Virus record (IMG/VR): IMGVR_UViG_3300011242_000002
Location: 128,001-192,000 of that record
From: a virus
Taxonomy: Duplodnaviria; Caudoviricetes
Strand: one strand, 5' to 3'
DNA length: 64,000 nt
A program made the translations under genes and the position numbers. Below the pieces are notes generated by a model. The model was not told the DNA's origin, ran no database searches, and worked only from the letters and a program-made list of their open reading frames with translations. The stretch's first letter is position 1. Every line of letters begins with the position of its first letter. Positions 4,711-63,618 of the stretch are shown in pieces.

Positions 4711-6240
4711 ATGCTGAAGAAACAAGATGTGGCTGCAATTATGCCAATCGCCGGGATGTTGGCCGAACGCGGCGTGCGTTTAGAGACGGTCCCCGGTTCC
4801 CCGATCAGTAACCTGACCATGGCCAGTGCCTCCATCAACCCAAGCGATGCCGATCCTGAATCGGTGCTGATTGCGGTATCGAACCCGTACGACACCGGTC
4901 GTCGTGATACCGAGGGTAACCCAGTGGTCCTGCCCTCTGAACACGGCTTTGTGAAAAAGCGCACCGTGGACTGTATTGCCAAAGGCGTCCAGACCGTCGT
5001 GGCGAACGCCCGTGGGGTAGTGATTCCCGCGATTAATGCTGCCCGTGATGCGGTGCTGACCGGGGTGGATGAAGGTAGCAAGGCCAAGGTGATTATCCCT
5101 GAGGTCGACGTCTACAACTATGATCCGATCTACGCCAGCGTTATCGTTGACGGGATTGCTAACCAGTACCAGCAGGTGGACCTGGTCGGGATGCCTACCC
5201 TGCAGTTGCCGGATCTGAGCGAAGAGCAGCTGCATGCTCTGGTGGATTCCGGTTCCCAGGAAGTGCGTGACTTCATCGCCCGTGAAGACCAGGAGTGTCC
5301 AGGTCATCTGTCAGCGATCTGGCAGATCTGGTTCCAGGGCCGTCCGGTTTCTAACACTGACGACTTCGTGTTCTTAAGCCGTATGCTGGTTGGTGGTAAC
5401 GACAAGACCCGTCTGATTGCGGCCGGTCAGTTCGGTGACAGCACCGACACCCGTAAAGGCTACGACTCGATCCTGGTGGCGTTCCTGTTGGCCAATGCCC
5501 TGTACGACAACCCGGTAAGCGGCGTGAGCTGGAACCTGGACCTGGCGCAGTACAACATGGCGATGTCGGCGTTTAAAGCACACTTCGGTAAAGTGGTCGG
5601 TCGCGTGTACAACGCCCGTGTGGTGGCTGCCGAACAGAAGCAGCTGATCATCAACATGCCGGTAGTGGCTAACTGGCAACTCGGTGAGCGCACGGAAAAC
5701 ATCCTGCTTAACGGTGACGTGTATAAATGGTACCTCGACAACGGTGGTTCCATTGAAGCGGTAATCGGTAACGTCTTTAGCCAGCGTACGCCAAGCGGTC
5801 GCACCACGCTTGACCTGAAGCCGCAGTTCGAAGCCGCGTATAACAACGTGGTGAGTAGCTATGCGGGTCTTGGGGTAAGCAACAAGCATCGCCTGACCAT
5901 CACCCTGTTGAGCGAAGTCTTGATTAACCATATCAAGCAGATCGACATCGGCTACTGGGACAGCCTTCATCCGAACACCAGCAAGCTCTCCGTCATCCAA
6001 GACGTGCAGAACTACCTGGCGCAGGGTTTACCGCTGGGCACCACCGATGCCATTAACCGTGTCATCATCTTCGCCTTTGCTACGCTGATCTACGGTCCGC
6101 TGCGTACCGAAGACTTCATCTCGGCGATGAACAACTACCCGGACCAGACGCTGTCGCCAAAAGCGATCGCTGCACACGTAATCATGGACATGGTCATCAA
6201 GTCCCTGATGTGCGACGTCTATTACAACTTCAACTCGTAA
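4711..6240 (+). CDS. Virion/head structural protein (phiKZ gp177 / SPN3US gp243 position)
   Basis: 509 aa, AAGGA RBS; call rests on synteny between vRNAP beta and the protease. Confidence 0.55.
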   Translation: MLKKQDVAAIMPIAGMLAERGVRLETVPGSPISNLTMASASINPSDADPESVLIAVSNPYDTGRRDTEGNPVVLPSEHGFVKKRTVDCIAKGVQTVVANARGVVIPAINAARDAVLTGVDEGSKAKVIIPEVDVYNYDPIYASVIVDGIANQYQQVDLVGMPTLQLPDLSEEQLHALVDSGSQEVRDFIAREDQECPGHLSAIWQIWFQGRPVSNTDDFVFLSRMLVGGNDKTRLIAAGQFGDSTDTRKGYDSILVAFLLANALYDNPVSGVSWNLDLAQYNMAMSAFKAHFGKVVGRVYNARVVAAEQKQLIINMPVVANWQLGERTENILLNGDVYKWYLDNGGSIEAVIGNVFSQRTPSGRTTLDLKPQFEAAYNNVVSSYAGLGVSNKHRLTITLLSEVLINHIKQIDIGYWDSLHPNTSKLSVIQDVQNYLAQGLPLGTTDAINRVIIFAFATLIYGPLRTEDFISAMNNYPDQTLSPKAIAAHVIMDMVIKSLMCDVYYNFNS

Positions 6241-45286: not shown

Positions 45287-46153
45287 ATGAAGAGTTTAAT
45301 TGCCAAGATCATGTCCAACGAAAACCTGCCGGACAGCGACAGCCGGAAAAGCTACAAGCTGATCCCGGTACCGGATAACCACGAGATCGAGTTTCGCCGC
45401 CTTAACCTGAGCATCCCCGAGATGATCTTCCACGCCCTGTTCGGTGACAGCGATCCCATCACCGTCCCTTTGCAGGACAGCGGTAACGTGTACATCCTGG
45501 AGAACGGTAAAACCATCTCCACCTTTGGCAGCGCACCCCCGCCGCATACCGAGCAAGCTATCGCTGAGCAGCCAAAGGACACACCGTTTAATCAGTCGTA
45601 TTTCGATCAGCTGATGCAGCTCTTTGATCGGGTGACCGATCAGGCGCAGCCGGAAGAATATCCGTGGTTCCAGGTAGTGGCCGCCGCCTTGGCAGGTGCC
45701 CCTGCGAGCCTACCCCCAGAGGGGTTATGCGTGCCGTTTGCGATGGCCGATGGCAGGTTGACCGATCGGGCGCGTGCTTTCGTTAAAACGCTGAACAGCG
45801 CGCTGTTGAACAGCAAACCGATGCTGGCGTTGGAAGGGGCGAAACTGATCAAGGCGAACTACGTGTACCTGGTGCAGATTATCCCTGCCCCGTACGTGGA
45901 GAAGTCAGCGTATGAAACCCAGACCGCCAAAGAAGAGTTGCTGAACCGCGACATTTCCCACAGCGTGGTCAACGCCGTGCAGCGGGCGCTGAAGATGTAT
46001 AACCACGGCGCCACGTTTGCGGTACTGACGCCTGCGCTGCGCATTAGTCCTAAAGAGCGAGTCGCAATCACCGCTATCTTTAAGAAATGGCATGACGTAG
46101 ATGTCAAGTTCCGGTTTGTGGATGATCTCTGCACCCTGTTCTATTTTGACTAA
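45287..46153 (+). CDS. Hypothetical protein
   Basis: CAGGAG RBS before ATG 45287. Confidence 0.75.
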   Translation: MKSLIAKIMSNENLPDSDSRKSYKLIPVPDNHEIEFRRLNLSIPEMIFHALFGDSDPITVPLQDSGNVYILENGKTISTFGSAPPPHTEQAIAEQPKDTPFNQSYFDQLMQLFDRVTDQAQPEEYPWFQVVAAALAGAPASLPPEGLCVPFAMADGRLTDRARAFVKTLNSALLNSKPMLALEGAKLIKANYVYLVQIIPAPYVEKSAYETQTAKEELLNRDISHSVVNAVQRALKMYNHGATFAVLTPALRISPKERVAITAIFKKWHDVDVKFRFVDDLCTLFYFD

Positions 46154-46294
46154 CCATCAGGGGTCCGTTGAGACCCCTAATTATTTCCGTTATGAAAATA
46201 AGTAATAAAATACATAGCAACCCCTTAGTATGTTAGGTAGTCGATGTCGAGGTTCATTAGAATCATCCGGTCGGCTACCCTTCATGGAGGATTC

Positions 46295-46408
46295 ATGCAT
46301 CTATCTAAACAGGCTTTAGCGCGCCAGCGGTTAGCACAGCTGAATATGTGGTTAATGATCTGTGGTTTTGAACCGCTGTGGACCAACCAGACCCTCAAAG
46401 AAAAATAA
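46295..46408 (+). CDS. Small protein (37 aa, MHLSKQALARQ...)
   Basis: GGAGGA RBS; not in the ORF track. Confidence 0.5.
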   Translation: MHLSKQALARQRLAQLNMWLMICGFEPLWTNQTLKEK

Positions 46409-46440
46409 AACCAGTTTCCCTTTTAAACAAGGATGACACC

Positions 46441-46602
46441 ATGGGTTTCTTTACGCGGTTTTTCTGTACCCACAAATACAAGCTTGTTCGCACCATCCAC
46501 GGTGATGAAATCATCTACCGTAACTATAAACGTAGCGAATGGAAGTGTCGACACTGCGGTAAAATTATATTCAGCAAATACCTGGAATACATCGGTAAAT
46601 GA
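46441..46602 (+). CDS. Small Zn-ribbon-like protein (CxH...CxxC)
   Basis: AAGGA RBS; FCTHKY...CRHCGK. Confidence 0.65.
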   Translation: MGFFTRFFCTHKYKLVRTIHGDEIIYRNYKRSEWKCRHCGKIIFSKYLEYIGK

Positions 46603-46610
46603 GGTGAGTC

Positions 46611-46796
46611 ATGCCAGCCATTCACGTGTCACAGACCATCGCCGATAAGCTGGATGCTAAAATGGTTCAGTTGATCACGGAAGGACAACGCAAGATAAAG
46701 CGCGCAACGATAAATGAACTGGCGATTCAATACGGCATCGATAAGGTCACCCTTGAGCGCGTCATTGCCTACGAATCAAAGCAGGAGTTCGTATGA
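46611..46796 (+). CDS. Possible ribbon-helix-helix DNA-binding protein
   Basis: GAGGTGA RBS; short strand (AIHVS) followed by two helices; 61 aa. Confidence 0.5.
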   Translation: MPAIHVSQTIADKLDAKMVQLITEGQRKIKRATINELAIQYGIDKVTLERVIAYESKQEFV

Positions 46797-47134
46797 AAAC
46801 AATCCCCGATCTGGATTTAGAATTCGCCGCATTAGTTGGTGACTTGTCTGAAGAAATAAATGACTGTTGTTATAATGACGACAGTATTTTGTGTGCAGCA
46901 TTGCACGGGATGTTAAACGAGCAATTGGCGGCGCGTGATAAACGTCACCGTGATTACATTGCGCGACTGTATCCTGATTATCCTGATTTAGACGCTCGTG
47001 TCATTGAATTGATAAAATTGACTGGTGGATGGCCGATGAATTTTGGCGAGCCAGTTACGCCGTTAAAAGAGTTACCTGAAAAGTATTACCTGGAATATTT
47101 CAGGAGCTCGGGTCGAGAAGACTTGCTGCAGTAA
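46793..47134 (+). CDS. Hypothetical protein
   Basis: AGGAG RBS; ATGA overlap. Confidence 0.7.
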   Translation: MKTIPDLDLEFAALVGDLSEEINDCCYNDDSILCAALHGMLNEQLAARDKRHRDYIARLYPDYPDLDARVIELIKLTGGWPMNFGEPVTPLKELPEKYYLEYFRSSGREDLLQ

Positions 47135-47141
47135 GTTAGTA

Positions 47142-47325
47142 TAATTCTGAGATGAATGCTCAACGTTGAGCACCCTTAATAGCAGGATGGCGGCGTGTGT
47201 ATTCGCAAAGTCGTTACACCCCACGGTCACCGCATGGACCGTGGTAATGAGAGACTTGGGACGCAGCTGAAAGTATGCTGGTAAATAGCCGTAACCACGA
47301 CCAACCGCGTGGCATCTCAGAATTA
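47142..47325 (+). ncRNA. Unknown ~185-nt multibranched structured RNA
   Basis: Perfect 13-bp closing stem TAATTCTGAGATG/CATCTCAGAATTA enclosing at least five helices; fills the intergenic gap. Confidence 0.7.
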
Positions 47326-47343
47326 GACAGGGGAATGTAGTAA

Positions 47344-47565
47344 GTGCATACAACAAAAATAAAGTACCATCAAAGAAACGGCAGTGGCTGCTATTCACTG
47401 AATGGCAAACCGTTATCTATTGAGGACGAACAACATTATCAGGTAGAGATGCGCCGCGCCAGGGAACTCTACCACATCCACAAGAAGTTCATCGATGGAC
47501 TCCCACAGTGGATCAAATCACTGGGTAAACGCTTTAACATCAAAGCGCTTACGCAGTACCTTTAA
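47344..47565 (+). CDS. Hypothetical protein
   Basis: GTG start, 73 aa. Confidence 0.5.
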   Translation: MHTTKIKYHQRNGSGCYSLNGKPLSIEDEQHYQVEMRRARELYHIHKKFIDGLPQWIKSLGKRFNIKALTQYL

Positions 47566-47583
47566 CCAAAAGGAGACGATTCT

Positions 47584-48165
47584 ATGGCAACCATCAATTA
47601 CGATGCGATTGCGCAAGAACTCAAACGTGGTCTAATCGACAACGAAAATACAGCAGCGCACCTGTGTATGGATAAGCCCATGCTGCTAAAAGAGCTGTAT
47701 ACCTTAGCATTCGGTGGTCCACGCCAAACGGGGAAAACCAAATGGATGATCGAGCATTTAATTCGTGATCCTGATTCTCGTTTGATCGCACTCAACCTAA
47801 CCATGCGTGAAGCTATCATTCAACAGCTTTCAGCGTATGCAAGGCTTGACGAAAATCGCGAAGGTGATGAACCACGACCAGATGCTATTTGGCACGCAGG
47901 CGGGATCGGCTGGGTGCAGGTGCATAAAGAAACCGCGGAATTAATTCGTAAAGATCCTAGGGTTGTCGAGCAGGCGATGCTTCGAATTATCACGGTGCCG
48001 ATGTTGCGGACCATGATTAATCAAGACACCGTCTTGCCAATCAACATCAGCCAGATCTTTATCGACCAGCGCGTTCAGGCGTTCCAGCTGATCCGCGCTA
48101 GTAAATACTATACGTGGTTGGCCAAAGTTTCTGATAAACCTATTCTGACCTGGCTGATCGACTAA
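47584..48165 (+). CDS. P-loop NTPase-like protein
   Basis: Walker A GGPRQTGKT; Walker B-like QIFID; AAGGAG RBS. Confidence 0.65.
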   Translation: MATINYDAIAQELKRGLIDNENTAAHLCMDKPMLLKELYTLAFGGPRQTGKTKWMIEHLIRDPDSRLIALNLTMREAIIQQLSAYARLDENREGDEPRPDAIWHAGGIGWVQVHKETAELIRKDPRVVEQAMLRIITVPMLRTMINQDTVLPINISQIFIDQRVQAFQLIRASKYYTWLAKVSDKPILTWLID

Positions 48166-48190
48166 ACTAATTTGCAGGGTACGAATCAAT

Positions 48191-48513
48191 GAGTCTGGCT
48201 GATAACCAGCTCACAGCGATAATAGCTTAGACCTACGGCGCGCCCCTAAGTCCGTAATAGCCGAATGCACAAAGCACTACTGCTCATCCGGTAGGCATTC
48301 GATCGCTGAACCATTATTCGATATGACACGGCCCACACAGCCAACCGTCAAAACCAAATTGACCCTGCGGCCGCCGCCTAATATACACGTAGCCGATGCG
48401 CGAAGACGTGATGGCGTTTGAGCGGCAGGGATCATAGGCCCAGGTACGTCCTGGACCGACCTTATTAAGTTAATCGGTTCGAGTGTTGCCATCCTAGCTG
48501 ACAAGGGTTCAGC
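48191..48513 (+). ncRNA. Two abutting structured RNA domains (one with an H-type pseudoknot)
   Basis: Closing stems CAGCGAT/ATCGCTG (48214-48308) and GCTGAACC/GGTTCAGC (48305-48513), each with several internal helices. Confidence 0.6.
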
Positions 48514-48528
48514 ATAACGGAGGCGAAC

Positions 48529-48828
48529 ATGAACTTATATCTGGTAGAGCGGACCGACACCGTCTGGTATGATGAGTATGTGGGTATGATCGTTGCGGCA
48601 GCGTCTGAAGATGCAGCGCGCATGATTCACCCGTCAGCATACAAACCGCTGGATAAAGCCGATGCGTTGCATTGCATAAAAGAGTCGGCGTGGTGTTTTG
48701 AGAATGATCGCAATCGTCGTAGTACGTATTGGGTGTTTTTGGAACATACATCGACTCTGCGCGTTACCCTAGTGGGAACAACGCACCTGGCTCCCTGCAT
48801 CCTGCTCTTGGATTTTAATGCCGGTTAA
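48529..48828 (+). CDS. Small phage hypothetical protein (YDEY..MIVAA.SE..AR..HP type)
   Basis: GGAGG RBS; motif typical of small phage proteins. Confidence 0.7.
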   Translation: MNLYLVERTDTVWYDEYVGMIVAAASEDAARMIHPSAYKPLDKADALHCIKESAWCFENDRNRRSTYWVFLEHTSTLRVTLVGTTHLAPCILLLDFNAG

Positions 48829-48864
48829 CTTAACGCCCGGGTAAGCCCGGGCACCTCTTCATAT

Positions 48865-48954
48865 TTGAAGCCCTGGGTCACTGCGAACTTCAACGTAGTC
48901 ACAAACATTCGCGATAATGGACTGTACGAGCTGCAGCCGTATCCAGGGCTTCAA
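48865..48954 (+). ncRNA. 90-nt three-way-junction RNA
   Basis: 14-bp closing stem TTGAAGCCCTGGGT/ATCCAGGGCTTCAA plus two internal hairpins. Confidence 0.6.
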
Positions 48955-48962
48955 TCCCAATC

Positions 48963-49062
48963 GTCCGGATAGTTTAATGAGAACAACGTCCTGGAAAGTG
49001 GTATAACTTACATGCCGCGTAATGGACGAAGGTGGATGAGGTTTGAGTCCTCCCTCCGGACA
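48963..49062 (+). ncRNA. tRNA-like element with a 32-nt expanded anticodon region (not a canonical tRNA)
   Basis: 7-bp acceptor GTCCGGA/TCCGGAC, U8A9, D stem GTTT/GAAC, stem CGTCC/GGACG, T arm GAGG-TTTGAGT-CCTC; no encoded CCA. Confidence 0.6.
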
Positions 49063-49074
49063 ACCTTTTGCTCT

Positions 49075-49172
49075 ACGTCGTACTGCCTGATGAGTTGCCG
49101 ACGTTAACTGCAACGAAACCTCGAGCAGTCTGGTCCCGCAAGGGAGTTCCAACCGGGCTGCTCTTGTCGCAG
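49075..49172 (+). ncRNA. Type I hammerhead ribozyme with pseudoknot; predicted cleavage after C49168
   Basis: CTGATGA 49087-93, stem II GTTGC/GCAAC, GAAA 49115-18, GTC 49166-68, stem I CTGC/GCAG; loop II CGACGT pairs with the 5' flank ACGTCG. Confidence 0.8.
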
Positions 49173-49205
49173 GGTTATCTCATTGACCAGGGTGTCTCGA
49201 GCTAA

Positions 49206-49310
49206 CGCAGCCTACTGACTATTTGAAATTACTACCGGGTTCTTTGGAATAGTCAGCGGGATGCGGTAATTTGACCGGTTACCTGTATCAGCATCGCAGG
49301 GGTGCGATGT
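49206..49310 (+). ncRNA. Structured RNA downstream of the ribozyme cut, possibly pseudoknotted
   Basis: CTGACTATT/AATAGTCAG stem; loop AAATTAC complementary to GTAATTT 49266-72; GCATCGCA/TGCGATGT hairpin. Confidence 0.5.
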
Positions 49311-49347
49311 ACGGTTCATGTTCTTGTGTTGAGTAGATGTAGCGGCT

Positions 49348-49384
49348 AAAACCCCGGGGCTAAACACCTCGGGGTTTTATGCCG
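49348..49384 (+). terminator. Terminator with TTATGCCG closing the RNA island
   Basis: AAAACCCCGGGG...CCTCGGGGTTTT stem. Confidence 0.8.
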
Positions 49385-49421
49385 GTTAAAAGCCAAATGC
49401 ATAATGCAGTTAATTTCAAAT

Positions 49422-49439
49422 CTATATTACCGCAGTGAT
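49422..49439 (+). promoter_or_regulatory. Early promoter (TATATTAC 49423-49430)
   Basis: CTATATTAC-CGCA-GTG with AATTTCAAA upstream. Confidence 0.8.
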
Positions 49440-49480
49440 AGATGTAAATAAACCCCCTTCTTCGTTCAGGAGATACCGCT

Positions 49481-49708
49481 ATGTTAATCCATTTTCTGCT
49501 GTACGGTTTTATGTTAAGCATGCTCGGCCTGGTAGGTATCCCATTGTTTGTGATGTACCGTCAAGTACTGGCCAAGCGCTACAACGTCAAACGCATTCAA
49601 CGTCTGTTGGCTGAGTACAGCCACAATGATGAATTACACACTTACGCGAAAGCCGAACTGGCTGACGCCAAGAAACGCCCGTTCTGGAAATGGAACATCC
49701 ACGCCTAA
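49481..49708 (+). CDS. Small membrane protein
   Basis: N-terminal hydrophobic helix; AGGAG RBS. Confidence 0.7.
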   Translation: MLIHFLLYGFMLSMLGLVGIPLFVMYRQVLAKRYNVKRIQRLLAEYSHNDELHTYAKAELADAKKRPFWKWNIHA

Positions 49709-54522: not shown

Positions 54523-55509
54523 ATGAGCAAACGTGTAACCCGTATTTATGCCTGCGGCGGCGGCGCCATCAAGATCACTGCTGATTTGGTGGACTACGTC
54601 AACGTGCCCGGTTTTTCCGACACCAAGATCTCGCGTCTGGACACCTCGGACAAAAACCTGACCGCCAACATGACCCAGTCCTCGATCTTTGTCCTGGACG
54701 GGGCCGACGGTTCCGGCAAGCAGCGTGACCACAACTACAAGCCGGTCGTGGCCGCGATGAGCAAGATCCTGGCCCAGCATCAGCCGGAAGACTACAACAT
54801 CGTGGTCTTTACCGCGGGCGGTGGTTCCGGTTCGGTCATCGGTCCGGTGTTGGTTGGTGAGCTGTTGCAGCGTAAGGCCCCGGTCATCGCGCTGGTTATT
54901 GGTACTACCGGTGATGAAACCCAGGCACAGAACTCGGTGAACACCATCAAGTCGCTGGGTGGTATTCAGGCACAGCACAAACGTCCGGTGGTGTTCTCCT
55001 ACTTTGAAGTCAACCAGCACAACAGCCAGTCGGATGTTGACCAGCAGGTGCGCGGTGTACTGTCCGGGCTGTTGAACCTGCTGGACAGCGACAACACCAT
55101 CATCGACAACAAAGACATCGTCAACTTCCTCGACTGGACCAACGTGCGTAAAGAGATTCCCGCACAGCTGGTGTGTCTGGAAATGTACAGCGGCACCGAG
55201 ATCGACGAGCTGGCCGGTAAGGCACCGATTACCATGGCCTCGATCTACCCGAACGAAGAGCGCAGCTACCTGCCGGTCTCCCCTGCGTATTCGACCGACG
55301 GCGTGCGCAGTGAGAACAGCGTTCAGACCAACGCTGAGTTTGCCCAGCTGACCATGCACTACGTGATCCATGCCGGTCCGGTTACTCCAGCCCTGCGTGA
55401 GCTGGAAAAGACCCTGCAGCGCATCCGTGATACCCAGCGTGCGCAGTTTGAAACCAGCAACGTGGTCAGCGGCGATGACAGCGTCGAAAGCACCGGGATG
55501 GTACTTTAA
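54523..55509 (+). CDS. phuZ: PhuZ phage tubulin
   Basis: RIYACGGGA, DGSGK and GGGSGS tubulin/FtsZ motifs; acidic C-terminal tail. Confidence 0.92.
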   Translation: MSKRVTRIYACGGGAIKITADLVDYVNVPGFSDTKISRLDTSDKNLTANMTQSSIFVLDGADGSGKQRDHNYKPVVAAMSKILAQHQPEDYNIVVFTAGGGSGSVIGPVLVGELLQRKAPVIALVIGTTGDETQAQNSVNTIKSLGGIQAQHKRPVVFSYFEVNQHNSQSDVDQQVRGVLSGLLNLLDSDNTIIDNKDIVNFLDWTNVRKEIPAQLVCLEMYSGTEIDELAGKAPITMASIYPNEERSYLPVSPAYSTDGVRSENSVQTNAEFAQLTMHYVIHAGPVTPALRELEKTLQRIRDTQRAQFETSNVVSGDDSVESTGMVL

Positions 55510-63475: not shown

Positions 63476-63582
63476 AACCACCCCGAATATAGTGATCTGT
63501 AATAAAAAACATAATGAGTTATAGTATGTGGAGAATGCCATCTCCCATCTGGGCTAACGCCTGGATGCCGCCTGGAGATAGA

Positions 63583-63618
63583 TTCAAACTTTTTACACCC
63601 CTATATTACCTAAGTGTA
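63583..63618 (+). promoter_or_regulatory. Early promoter of chimallin
   Basis: Identical to 9281-9316; TATATTAC core. Confidence 0.85.

Follow-up and report, generated by a model that had tools for sequence, protein, structure and literature searches.

RNAs of the tRNA region of bacteriophage T4 are processed from precursors that contain several RNAs. The phage RNAs GOLLD and ROOL often adjoin tRNA genes, and to our knowledge they have no known function. The T4 tRNA region contains the stable small RNAs C and D (species 1 and 2), small ORFs, and the homing endonuclease gene segB (PMC3014915, PMC2330249). Self-cleaving ribozymes have also been found in phages: hammerheads occur in phage transcripts (PMC3088659), and HDV-like theta ribozymes adjoin phage tRNAs and cut at the tRNA 3' end (PMC10879173). 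Theta ribozymes cut at their own 5' end and therefore form the tRNA's 3' end.

Here we describe a 3.2-kb stretch, from the genome of a nucleus-forming giant phage, that holds at least six conserved, folded non-coding RNAs. The stretch lies in a 64,000-nucleotide segment (positions 128,001 to 192,000) of IMG/VR record IMGVR_UViG_3300011242_000002, referred to below as the window. Its closest analogue is the T4 tRNA cluster with the unexplained RNAs C and D, and we consider it likely that the block represents an "RNA island" of the tRNA-cluster type in a chimallivirus (nucleus-forming jumbo phage).

Genome context and arrangement of the locus

A profile search of the phage genome identified a chimallin (PF25677, 119 bits), a match to RNA_pol_Rpb2_6 above its cut-off, indicating a multisubunit RNA polymerase, and a tubulin-like ORF with a score of 25 bits, under the cut-off. 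The characters of the Chimalliviridae, namely chimallin, a PhuZ-type tubulin, and a phiKZ-type multisubunit RNA polymerase, were all present, the tubulin with a sub-cut-off score. A first-pass annotation of the window had called the phage nucleus-forming, which was correct because the phage encodes chimallin. In the ORF map of the window there were three large intergenic gaps, at 47135–47343, 48166–48528, and 48829–49347, the coordinates given in that annotation. Seven modules were resolved: M1, M2a, M2b, M3a, a tRNA-shaped RNA (M3b), a hammerhead, and M3d, a 3' RNA that closes with a terminator. They alternate with small genes lacking assigned function, and the features of the block are as follows.

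46200–46233, + strand: promoter-like element consisting of an A-rich box AATAAAATACATA, a spacer of about 11 nt, and AGTATGT
46236–46279, + strand: 9-bp hairpin (loop of 26 nt) within a small ORF's 5' leader
46295–46408, + strand: 37-aa ORF, conserved, served by a strong ribosome-binding site (GGAGGA)
46441–46602, + strand: small Cys-rich (zinc-ribbon-like) ORF, likely start ATG 46441
46611–47134, + strand: two ORFs of 61 and 113 aa, in the window and not in the related locus L001
47143–47324, + strand: M1, multi-branched RNA of about 182 nt with a 12-bp closing helix (47143–47154 with 47313–47324)
47344–47565, + strand: 73-aa ORF, after M1
47584–48165, + strand: 193-aa P-loop NTPase-like ORF with Walker A GPRQTGKT and Walker B IFID
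48190–48345, + strand: M2a, comprising a hairpin (48190–48213), a junction domain, and a conserved tail
48346–48528, + strand: M2b, second conserved domain, with the ribosome-binding site GGAGG (48519–48523) at its 3' end
48529–48828, + strand: 99-aa ORF matching phrog_5444 (E = 1e-20)
48835–48852, + strand: 7-bp GC hairpin with a U-rich stretch behind it, after the 99-aa ORF
48865–48954, + strand: M3a, 90-nt junction RNA with a closing helix of about 14 bp
48963–49061, + strand: M3b, tRNA-shaped RNA (7-bp acceptor stem, U8-A9, short D arm)
49075–49172, + strand: type I hammerhead with core, three stems, and pseudoknot
49169–49347, + strand: M3d, structured RNA whose 5' end would come from the hammerhead cut
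49342–49385, + strand: intrinsic-terminator-like helix and U tract at the end of the block

The promoter-like element, with its TATG at 46229–46232, was almost invariant in 11 relatives (alignment A10), and a second copy was found at 63497–63530, upstream of chimallin. Its layout resembled that seen in phiKZ promoters of the middle and late classes (PMC4666361), and we infer that the element may act as a promoter. The hairpin that follows had a folding z-score of −3.8 on the + strand, and its stem covaried, with compensatory changes in 7 of the 18 predicted pairs of A10. The TATG and the 9-bp hairpin, with which the first-pass annotation began the block, were both conserved in relatives.

Homologous small CDSs of the 37-aa ORF were annotated or called in relatives, and no family match to it was found. 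The start of the zinc-ribbon-like ORF was chosen by homology to a 54-aa CDS in L001 (the ORF list gives GTG 46378); this ORF matched phrog_7696 (function not assigned), and zinc-finger Pfam families matched it below threshold only. The matches of the 61- and 113-aa ORFs to HTH-like families were likewise sub-threshold, and the ORF proposed to encode a ribbon-helix-helix protein had sub-threshold matches only. The P-loop NTPase was correctly called: both Walker motifs were kept in 18 homologue clusters. This ORF matched phrog_2586 (function not assigned), and its AF2 model (pLDDT 77) gave weak RecA/DEAD-like Foldseek matches (E ≥ 0.02). The 99-aa ORF was confirmed as coding by third-position variation.

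tRNA genes in the islands of related phages

ARAGORN detected no tRNA in the window, and none was found in the window genome. The islands of relatives hold genuine tRNA-Tyr and tRNA-Asn genes together with extra tRNA-like RNAs, with sporadic loss. Of the 16 loci compared, 9 had a tRNA-Tyr gene directly 3' of the NTPase-like ORF, and the deletion of this gene from the window genome was clean. The segment of L001 between the zinc-ribbon-like ORF and M1 holds tRNA-Asn in place of the 61- and 113-aa ORFs. These comparisons indicated that the window genome has lost every canonical tRNA and retained the other modules; the first-pass annotation lacked this key context, a locus of the tRNA-cluster kind stripped of its real tRNAs in this genome. 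Neighbouring genes in relatives included Tad2-like and Acb2/Tad1-like genes, and YrlA-like elements (30–42 bits, threshold 69) were present in their islands. No match to YrlA or tmRNA was obtained in 45900–49700 (E ≤ 10), and the genome contained neither an Rsr/TROVE gene nor RtcB, a lack of partners that we counted against the RNA-island reading.

If the gaps were decaying tRNA-gene remnants and mobile-element scars without present function, one would point to the loss of tRNA-Tyr and tRNA-Asn here and in several relatives, to the degenerate tRNAs in L002, L012, and L018, and to the HNH endonuclease genes inserted in relatives. We disfavour this explanation as very improbable, since compensatory changes hold 92–99% of the cells paired across the modules, loops and junctions are invariant across genomes whose neighbouring proteins share only 42–85% identity, and the modules match or surpass the neighbouring genes in conservation (identity of 0.73–0.80 versus 0.66–0.75 for adjacent ORFs).

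Covariation and strand of the intergenic RNAs

All three gaps were kept in about 15 distinct related jumbo-phage genomes, each gap in 10–15 non-identical relatives. In the RNAalifold consensus structures, compensatory changes were found at 17 of 30 pairs in the tRNA-shaped RNA (A4, 15 sequences), 12 of 40 in M1 (A5, 13 sequences), 11 of 35 in M2a (A6, 13 sequences), 3 of 33 in M2b (A7, 10 sequences; weak), 11 of 30 in M3a (A8, 14 sequences), and 15 of 54 in M3d with the terminator included (A9, 14 sequences); because the aligned sequences are related to one another, these counts overstate the number of independent events. Among structural pairs with both columns variable, 46–95% were compensatory, compared with 4–7% of other variable column pairs in the same alignments, and slid-partner controls collapsed. 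Folding z-scores against dinucleotide shuffles were −0.8 to −5.4 on the + strand, whereas most CDS controls were between −1.0 and +1.1.

The numbers of G-U and A-C cells in six modules were 55/0, 68/0, 33/13, 42/9, 54/8, and 133/5 (the last for M3d), and the RNAs are therefore on the + strand. Such an excess is not expected of DNA hairpins. That the conserved elements are DNA-level sites (an origin, a recombination site, or an endonuclease target) or small protein genes would fit the many inverted repeats and the annotated CDSs in the corresponding gaps of some relatives. However, the relatives' CDSs in gap 3 sit in segments missing from the window, no ORF within the gaps exceeds 45 aa, and third-position periodicity was absent in the modules and present in both ORF controls; we regard this explanation as extremely improbable.

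As judged from the alignments, at least six + strand modules are under purifying selection for base pairing, namely M1, M2a, M3a, the tRNA-shaped RNA, the pseudoknotted hammerhead of type I, and the terminator-bearing 3' RNA; selection on M2b as an RNA module is less certain. The first-pass annotation had placed structured RNAs in every gap and noted that G-U pairs favour the + strand. The compensatory pairs, the G-U excess (G-U/A-C counts from 55/0 to 33/13), and the conservation in 10–15 relatives agreed with it, as did the outcome of two checks that it had named, covariation in homologous intergenic regions of related jumbo phages and folding against dinucleotide shuffles. In an Rfam scan, which it had also named, nothing was recognised in the window, the hammerhead included: Rfam 15, with GOLLD and ROOL, gave no match at the gathering score over the whole window, and only three chance-level matches at E ≤ 10 in 45900–49700.

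M1, M2a, and M2b

M1 contains a variable hairpin insert at about 47195–47245. The cells of its pairs were 98% canonical, and its z-score was −3.1; it had no Rfam match, and a pattern search found it confined to the clade of the window phage. The junction domain of M2a is closed by pairing of 48214–48220 with 48302–48308. Compensatory pairs in M2a were enriched over the null (p = 4e-7), and the module was present in all distinct loci but L021. The sequence of M2b was strongly conserved, with 6 of 13 variable pairs compensatory and a z-score of −0.8, and its GGAGG serves the 99-aa ORF. This weak structural support and the overlap with a ribosome-binding site were counted against the RNA-island reading.

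A cis-acting role is possible because M1 and M2b are directly upstream of ORFs. The modules would then be parts of mRNAs and not separate RNAs, as structured 5' and 3' UTRs or intercistronic elements by which the transcript is stabilised or the adjacent small ORFs are controlled in their translation, similar to riboswitches or thermosensors. M1 ends 20 nt before the 73-aa ORF, and the ribosome-binding site of the 99-aa ORF is inside M2b; in L018, however, M1 is followed by a 95-aa ORF and a Tad2-like ORF, which replace the 73-aa ORF, and M2a and M2b are separable, being found apart in relatives. M1 and M2a are helix-closed junctions, a shape typical of aptamers, but no Rfam riboswitch matched even at E ≤ 10. 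Most reported sRNAs of phage 201phi2-1 come from 5' UTRs (PMC11512511), whereas the roughly 520-nt M3 block leads into a terminator and not an ORF, and its tRNA-like RNA and hammerhead imply processing. We consider it doubtful that the modules are cis-acting elements.

M3a and the tRNA-shaped RNA

M3a, with a z-score of −5.4, ends 8 nt before the tRNA-shaped RNA. In the A4 consensus, the latter showed the cloverleaf, 7-bp acceptor stem, U8, and D stem of a tRNA, and the acceptor stem covaried at 3 pairs. An internal loop and a 7-bp helix extend its anticodon arm, and the helix is capped by an invariant 7-nt loop, AACUUAC; unlike in a tRNA, the arm is not a 5-bp stem with a 7-nt loop carrying U33, an A of AACUUAC taking the position of U33. 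The RNA also departs from a tRNA at the elbow, which T-loop U54-U55-C56 and D-loop GG form: its T loop varies and is non-canonical (UUUGAGU in the window), and GG is missing from its D loop. CCA is not encoded. The match to RF00005 was 16.7 bits (E = 8.9) against a gathering score of 29, and the RNA was passed over by ARAGORN. Model R1 of the tRNA-shaped RNA found one copy in the genome; among 68 IMG/VR loci hit by a pattern, it found none. The tRNA mimic of the first-pass annotation is real in view of its cloverleaf order and its covariation in 15 sequences.

Hammerhead ribozyme

The elements of the hammerhead are located as follows.

49075–49080 with loop II 49099–49104, + strand: pseudoknot
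49083–49086 with 49169–49172, + strand: stem I
49087–49093, + strand: CUGAUGA
49094–49098 with 49110–49114, + strand: stem II
49115–49117, + strand: GAA
49118–49167, + strand: extended stem III
49168, + strand: C17, with the predicted cut at 49168/49169

The core was defined as C3 U4 G5 A6 N7 G8 A9, G12 A13 A14, an A15.1-U16.1 pair, and H17 other than G. All of these positions were found in the window and in 15 further loci, with N7 being U or C and H17 being C or A. Stem II alternates between U-A and C-G, and stem III, of 10–12 bp, has several compensatory pairs; stem I is short (3–6 bp) and covaries in part only. The pseudoknot joins loop II to the 5' flank by 5–6 bp, the fifth pair of which is C-G, A-U, or U-A depending on the locus. 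In the window, stem III beside the core consists of 2 bp followed by an internal loop, which could lower activity. A compact hammerhead was found directly 3' of tRNA-Leu in the distant phage L006. The window hammerhead matched no Rfam hammerhead even at E ≤ 10, and those of relatives scored 26–30 bits on RF00008 against a threshold of 48.5; the topology of RF00008 is type III, the wrong type. The full core in 16 loci with covarying stems II and III and pseudoknot nevertheless marks the hammerhead as genuine.

Self-cleavage is predicted between 49168 and 49169. The first-pass annotation had stated that ribozymes are placed beside tRNAs in phages to process them, which is documented for theta ribozymes (PMC10879173). 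The hammerhead is predicted to cut at its own 3' end, and what it would generate is therefore the 5' end of the RNA that follows and not an end of a tRNA.

3' RNA and terminator-like hairpins

The hairpin at 48835–48852 was conserved, with both-sided changes at two stem pairs, and may be a leaky terminator that ends part of transcription. M3d (z = −2.5) consists of a conserved leader, unpaired in the consensus fold, and three conserved hairpins. The terminator placed at the end of the block by the first-pass annotation was kept in all relatives, one of its pairs being U-A, C-G, or A-U. It escaped a simple terminator scan, perhaps owing to its irregular stem.

Proposed maturation and function

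The phage's own RNA polymerase would read the block rightwards from the TATG-containing element at 46200–46233 to 49385, perhaps with partial termination at 48835–48852. The last 520 nt could be matured without need of coding sequence: host RNase P would cut on the 5' side of the tRNA-shaped RNA, freeing M3a, and self-cutting of the hammerhead at 49168/49169 would place a 2',3'-cyclic phosphate on the tRNA-like plus ribozyme RNA and a 5'-OH on the 3' RNA. We speculate that the products are stable trans RNAs in phage–host conflict, for example binding or titrating tRNA-directed host factors, and that a self-cleaving ribozyme might be useful in a compartment thought to exclude host RNases. As a tentative possibility, the modules may be discrete trans-acting RNAs with which a clade of enterobacterial nucleus-forming jumbo phages counters host RNA- or tRNA-directed immunity, or ribonucleoprotein scaffolds. 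If so, the tRNA-shaped RNA, whose AACUUAC loop is invariant, would act on a tRNA-binding host factor as its decoy or inhibitor, and the hammerhead would make maturation independent of host RNases, which are thought to be kept outside the phage nucleus.

Comparison with known systems

Like the T4 tRNA region, the island in relatives mixes tRNAs, HNH endonuclease genes, and small ORFs. It differs in that its modules are more numerous and larger, with a ribozyme built in and no sequence relation seen, and in that the genome is without canonical tRNAs and the phage is a nucleus-forming jumbo phage. The modules resemble GOLLD (RF01998) and ROOL (RF03087) as long, intricately folded phage non-coding RNAs; the island is, however, a string of separable modules without an Rfam match and not a single large conserved fold. 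The tRNA-shaped RNA combines an acceptor-like stem with a T-arm-like hairpin and has no decoding ability, as in the tRNA-like domain of YrlA (RF02553) and tmRNA, but unlike these it keeps the cloverleaf order and has an elongated anticodon arm.

The hammerhead shares with the type I hammerheads of Perreault et al. 2011 (PMC3088659) the full core, three stems, and a 5–6-bp pseudoknot between loop II and the 5' flank, and, as with phage and prophage members of this type (PMC3088659), it would lie in a long phage transcript that is the predicted target of its cut. Unlike those hammerheads, it has a branched insert of 50–81 nt in stem III, falls below every Rfam hammerhead threshold, and is linked to tRNA or tRNA-like genes. 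In this linkage it resembles the theta ribozymes (PMC10879173), being a small self-cleaving ribozyme directly 3' of a phage tRNA or tRNA-like gene; it belongs to another class, and whereas theta ribozymes cut at their 5' end, the island hammerhead is predicted to cut at its 3' end.

Phage identity and relatives

The source record of the window was 273,301 bp long with direct terminal repeats. The genome encoded chimallin (PF25677, 119 bits), a tubulin-like (PhuZ-type) ORF of 335 aa (window 54637-54960) that scored 25 bits on PF00091, under the cut-off, and a fragment of a phiKZ-type multisubunit RNA polymerase. Taken together, these three components indicated that the label of nucleus-forming phage in the first-pass annotation was correct. 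The closest deposited phages were Erwinia phages pEa_SNUABM_48 and pEa_SNUABM_37 and Salmonella phage vB_SalM_SA002, which showed approximately 76% identity across 63-73% of the island (46229-49384). To collect relatives, we used the 193-aa ORF of the island as an anchor, and two IMG/VR loci were obtained; 18 homologous protein clusters of this ORF led to sixteen further loci in ENA, Logan, and JGI assemblies, and several of these lay on contigs 280-295 kb long. A blastn map showed that all pieces of the three non-coding gaps were conserved in most of the collected loci.

Structured RNAs in the non-coding gaps

The borders of the RNA modules and their covariation are listed below; in reading the counts, shared ancestry of the sequences and the preference of RNAalifold for covarying pairs have to be considered.

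RNA modules of the island (window positions, strand, module, covariation)
47143-47324, + strand, M1: 12/40 pairs compensatory (RNAalifold)
48190-48345, + strand, M2a: 11/35 pairs compensatory (RNAalifold)
48346-48528, + strand, M2b: 3/33 pairs compensatory (RNAalifold), weak
48865-48954, + strand, M3a: 11/30 pairs compensatory (RNAalifold)
48963-49061, + strand, M3b, tRNA-shaped RNA: 17/30 pairs compensatory (RNAalifold)
49075-49172, + strand, hammerhead: core and covarying stems across 16 loci
49169-49385, + strand, M3d with terminator: 15/54 pairs compensatory (RNAalifold)

In our own count on the module alignments, 46-95% of the structural pairs with both columns variable were compensatory, against 4-7% of all other variable column pairs in the same alignments (binomial p 6e-5 to 1e-20), and the signal was gone when the partner was slid by 1 or 2 columns. 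The proposal that the gaps hold structured RNAs was thus borne out by compensatory changes in homologs. G-U cells exceeded A-C cells in the module alignments (55/0, 68/0, 33/13, 42/9, 54/8, and 133/5), indicating that the RNAs are on the + strand, as the G-U pairs noticed in the window alone had suggested. There was no codon phase in the variable columns of any module, whereas it was seen in both ORF controls, and identity to the window was 73-80% for the modules versus 66-75% for these two ORFs. Folding z-scores of the + strand relative to dinucleotide shuffles ranged from -0.8 (M2b) to -5.4 (M3a), and five of six CDS controls lay between -1.0 and +1.1. The CDS control of the 113-aa ORF had an unusually low z of -2.9, caused by a perfect 10-bp hairpin with a T-rich run at 46863-46885 within this ORF, which was also flagged by the terminator scan.

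A pseudoknot within M2a (48225-30 with 48246-51) was not supported, since the pairing was not kept in relatives. The possibility that M2a and M2b formed a group I intron split by ORFs was rejected, as there was no Rfam match and the halves were separate in relatives. When the whole window was scanned with Rfam 15 at the gathering score, there was no match. At E <= 10, the region 45900-49700 gave no family for any module, and the matches were a weak tRNA-like one at 48963-49061 (16.7 bits) and two at chance level; folds that had gone unrecognised by eye were assigned to no family by the scans either. Matches to the M1 pattern were confined to the clade, on two IMG/VR contigs, and those to the M2a pattern to the clade, on two JGI contigs of approximately 280 kb. 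The tRNA-like pattern gave 70 matches, two in known relatives and 68 dismissed as chance by R1, our model of the tRNA-shaped RNA, and the hammerhead subtype was not found in 185,579 bacterial genomes. As judged from these pattern scans, the modules are restricted to the clade of the window phage.

Ends of the island and its ORFs

The region 46200-46233 contained an A-rich box, a spacer of approximately 11 nt, and AGTATGT, and was nearly invariant among 11 relatives. A second copy of this element was located at 63497-63530, 165 nt 5' of the start codon of chimallin (ORF from 63694; L096 295-2358). A separate element with TATATTAC (63583-63618) followed this copy upstream of chimallin. Promoters of phiKZ carry TATG, in which the G is +1, and those of the middle class show, in addition, an AAanTTACc box near -24 (PMC4666361). 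A middle promoter drives a tRNA in phage 201phi2-1 (PMC11512511). From a layout that recalls the phiKZ promoters, we infer that 46200-46233 is a putative promoter. The hairpin at 46236-46279, in the leader that precedes a conserved ORF of 37 aa, covaried, and the terminator helix at 49342-49385 was conserved and covarying; the TATG element, hairpin, and 3' terminator that had been taken as the ends of the block were thus all conserved in relatives. The modules would be co-transcribed with the small genes. Transcription may be stopped in part at 48835-48852, where a GC hairpin followed by a U-rich tail is conserved, so that a single transcription unit is a tentative reading of the island.

The island ORFs matched PHROG families of unknown function solely, and none scored above threshold against Pfam. 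The Walker A and Walker B motifs of the 193-aa protein were invariant, in agreement with its earlier description as a P-loop NTPase. The structural model of this protein gave weak RecA/DEAD-like fold matches (Foldseek, E >= 0.02), and these were too weak for it to be called an RNA kinase or a repair enzyme.

The hammerhead ribozyme

The window hammerhead had CUGAUGA at 49087-93, GAA at 49115-17, the A15.1-U16.1 and C15.2-G16.2 pairs, and C17 at 49168, with stem II formed by GUUGC/GCAAC and stem I by CUGC with GCAG. Across 16 loci, the core was invariant save for the free position N7, H17 was A or C, and stem II showed switches between U-A and C-G. In these loci, the helix of stem III was 10-12 bp long, showed numerous compensatory changes, and closed off a domain of 50-81 nt. 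The start of loop II paired with the 6 nt on the 5' side of stem I, and the fifth pair of this pseudoknot was C-G, A-U, or U-A depending on the locus. The ribozyme recognised in the first-pass annotation was confirmed by this covariation of stems and pseudoknot, and pseudoknotted hammerheads are documented in phage transcripts (PMC3088659). Because stem III of the window had just two pairs before an internal loop, activity of the window hammerhead is graded as plausible and not as proven.

Sub-threshold matches to RF00008 (Hammerhead_3) in relatives raised the alternative of a type III hammerhead. However, the 7 nt between the GUC of these matches and CUGAUGA leave no room for a stem I hairpin, GUCG pairs with loop II, and stem III, which is long and covaries, runs to a GUC or GUA site farther downstream; the type III arrangement was therefore rejected. 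In a distant phage (locus L006, IMGVR_UViG_3300050151_000036), positions 772-930 contained a tRNA-Leu(UAA) ending in CCA, one base, and then a hammerhead of the same subtype, with core and loop II as in the window and an ordinary compact 7-bp hairpin as stem III. This compact form indicated that the window carries this ribozyme in a version enlarged by an insert. The hammerhead of L006 was not reported by Rfam at E <= 1. The window hammerhead is a new member of a class that is known, and it is the tRNA- or tRNA-like-linked subtype with a large stem III insert that is missed by current models. The insert was 81 nt long and well conserved in most relatives (e.g. L001 5938-6018); in the window its place was taken by another branch, 50 nt long, which includes a hairpin capped by a GCAA tetraloop (49118-49167), and locus L021 had yet another version.

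Self-cleavage is predicted between 49168 and 49169, and would leave a 3' RNA with a 5'-OH end. Theta ribozymes mature the 3' end of tRNAs (PMC10879173), whereas the window hammerhead cuts at its own 3' side and hence cannot do so. The earlier idea that phage ribozymes lie beside tRNAs for processing thus holds for theta ribozymes, and formation of a tRNA 3' end does not apply here.

The tRNA-shaped RNA and loss of canonical tRNAs

The cloverleaf-like M3b had a covarying 7-bp acceptor stem followed by U8-A9; its D stem was 4 bp long, and the short D loop had no GG. Its anticodon stem continued into an internal loop, conserved and asymmetric, and then into a 7-bp helix that covaried and was capped by the invariant loop AACUUAC; the loop of the T stem was variable and non-canonical, and the acceptor stem was followed in most relatives by ACC and not CCA. 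Since M3b departed from tRNAs in four of five defining features, it is, by its predicted fold, a tRNA mimic and not a tRNA, as had been supposed. An intron-containing tRNA was also considered and rejected, because the residual loop had neither U33 nor an anticodon layout and the insert was an arm extension with a covarying helix. Model R1 found one copy of M3b per genome. RNase P would cleave at the tRNA mimic. A second, larger tRNA-like RNA of approximately 130 nt, which has a hairpin resembling a T arm and ends in an encoded CCA, lay after the tRNA-shaped RNA and before the hammerhead in L001 (about 5722-5850) and at the homologous site in most relatives; the window, L002, and L012 did not have it.

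No tRNA was detected by ARAGORN in the window or by RF00005 in the whole genome. Among the 16 loci compared, 9 had tRNA-Tyr(GUA) immediately after the 193-aa ORF (L001 4434-4519; L002 4281-4366). This tRNA was cleanly deleted from the window at 48165-48170, with only ACTAA left against the ACCAA 3' end of relatives. In L012, an HNH endonuclease gene occupied the tRNA-Tyr position and tRNA-Tyr was not found. Upstream of M1, relatives had tRNA-Asn(GUU) or a degenerate tRNA; in L001, tRNA-Asn lay directly upstream, between the zinc-ribbon-like ORF and M1, where the window had two ORFs. The tRNAs of relatives and the deletion in the window indicated that the locus is, on comparative grounds, a tRNA-cluster locus from which the canonical tRNAs were lost in the window's genome. 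Relatives also contained YrlA-like elements (RF02553 tRNA-like domain; 30-42 bits against a threshold of 69), as follows.

YrlA-like elements in relatives (locus, positions)
L001 2502-2605
L002 2488-2605
L008 2874-2945
L010 1713-1823
L012 2826-2895
L018 1993-2056

There was no YrlA-like element in the window and no Rsr/TROVE or RtcB gene in its genome. The islands of relatives contained a Tad2-like gene, an Acb2/Tad1-like (Acb2/Tad1-hairpin-domain) gene, and HNH endonuclease genes (L018 3721-3975; L021 901-1581; L010 2878-3480; L012 4733-5254), indicating that the region is accessory, mosaic in its make-up, and has anti-defence content.

Discussion

Comparative analysis showed that a former tRNA locus carries structured RNAs, a hammerhead and a tRNA mimic among them, that are clade-specific and selected on the + strand. 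The observation in the first-pass annotation was thus confirmed, and its interpretation was supported in part. Retention of these RNAs after the real tRNAs were lost argues for a function of their own. Speculatively, the products might act in trans in phage-host conflict; if they served counter-defence or the handling of RNA in a phage that forms a nucleus, this would add a new layer to that conflict. The clade has cultured Erwinia and Salmonella phages, so that direct experiment is possible.

New RNA families are represented by the tRNA mimic and by the remaining modules, in a kind of locus that is already known. Extra unexplained stable RNAs have been known in phage tRNA clusters since T4. 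The present locus supplies six or seven such RNAs; their consensus folds are clear, and Rfam has none of them. Its closest analogue is the T4 tRNA region, which contains RNAs C and D, both still without an explained role (PMC3014915), and also segB (PMC2330249).
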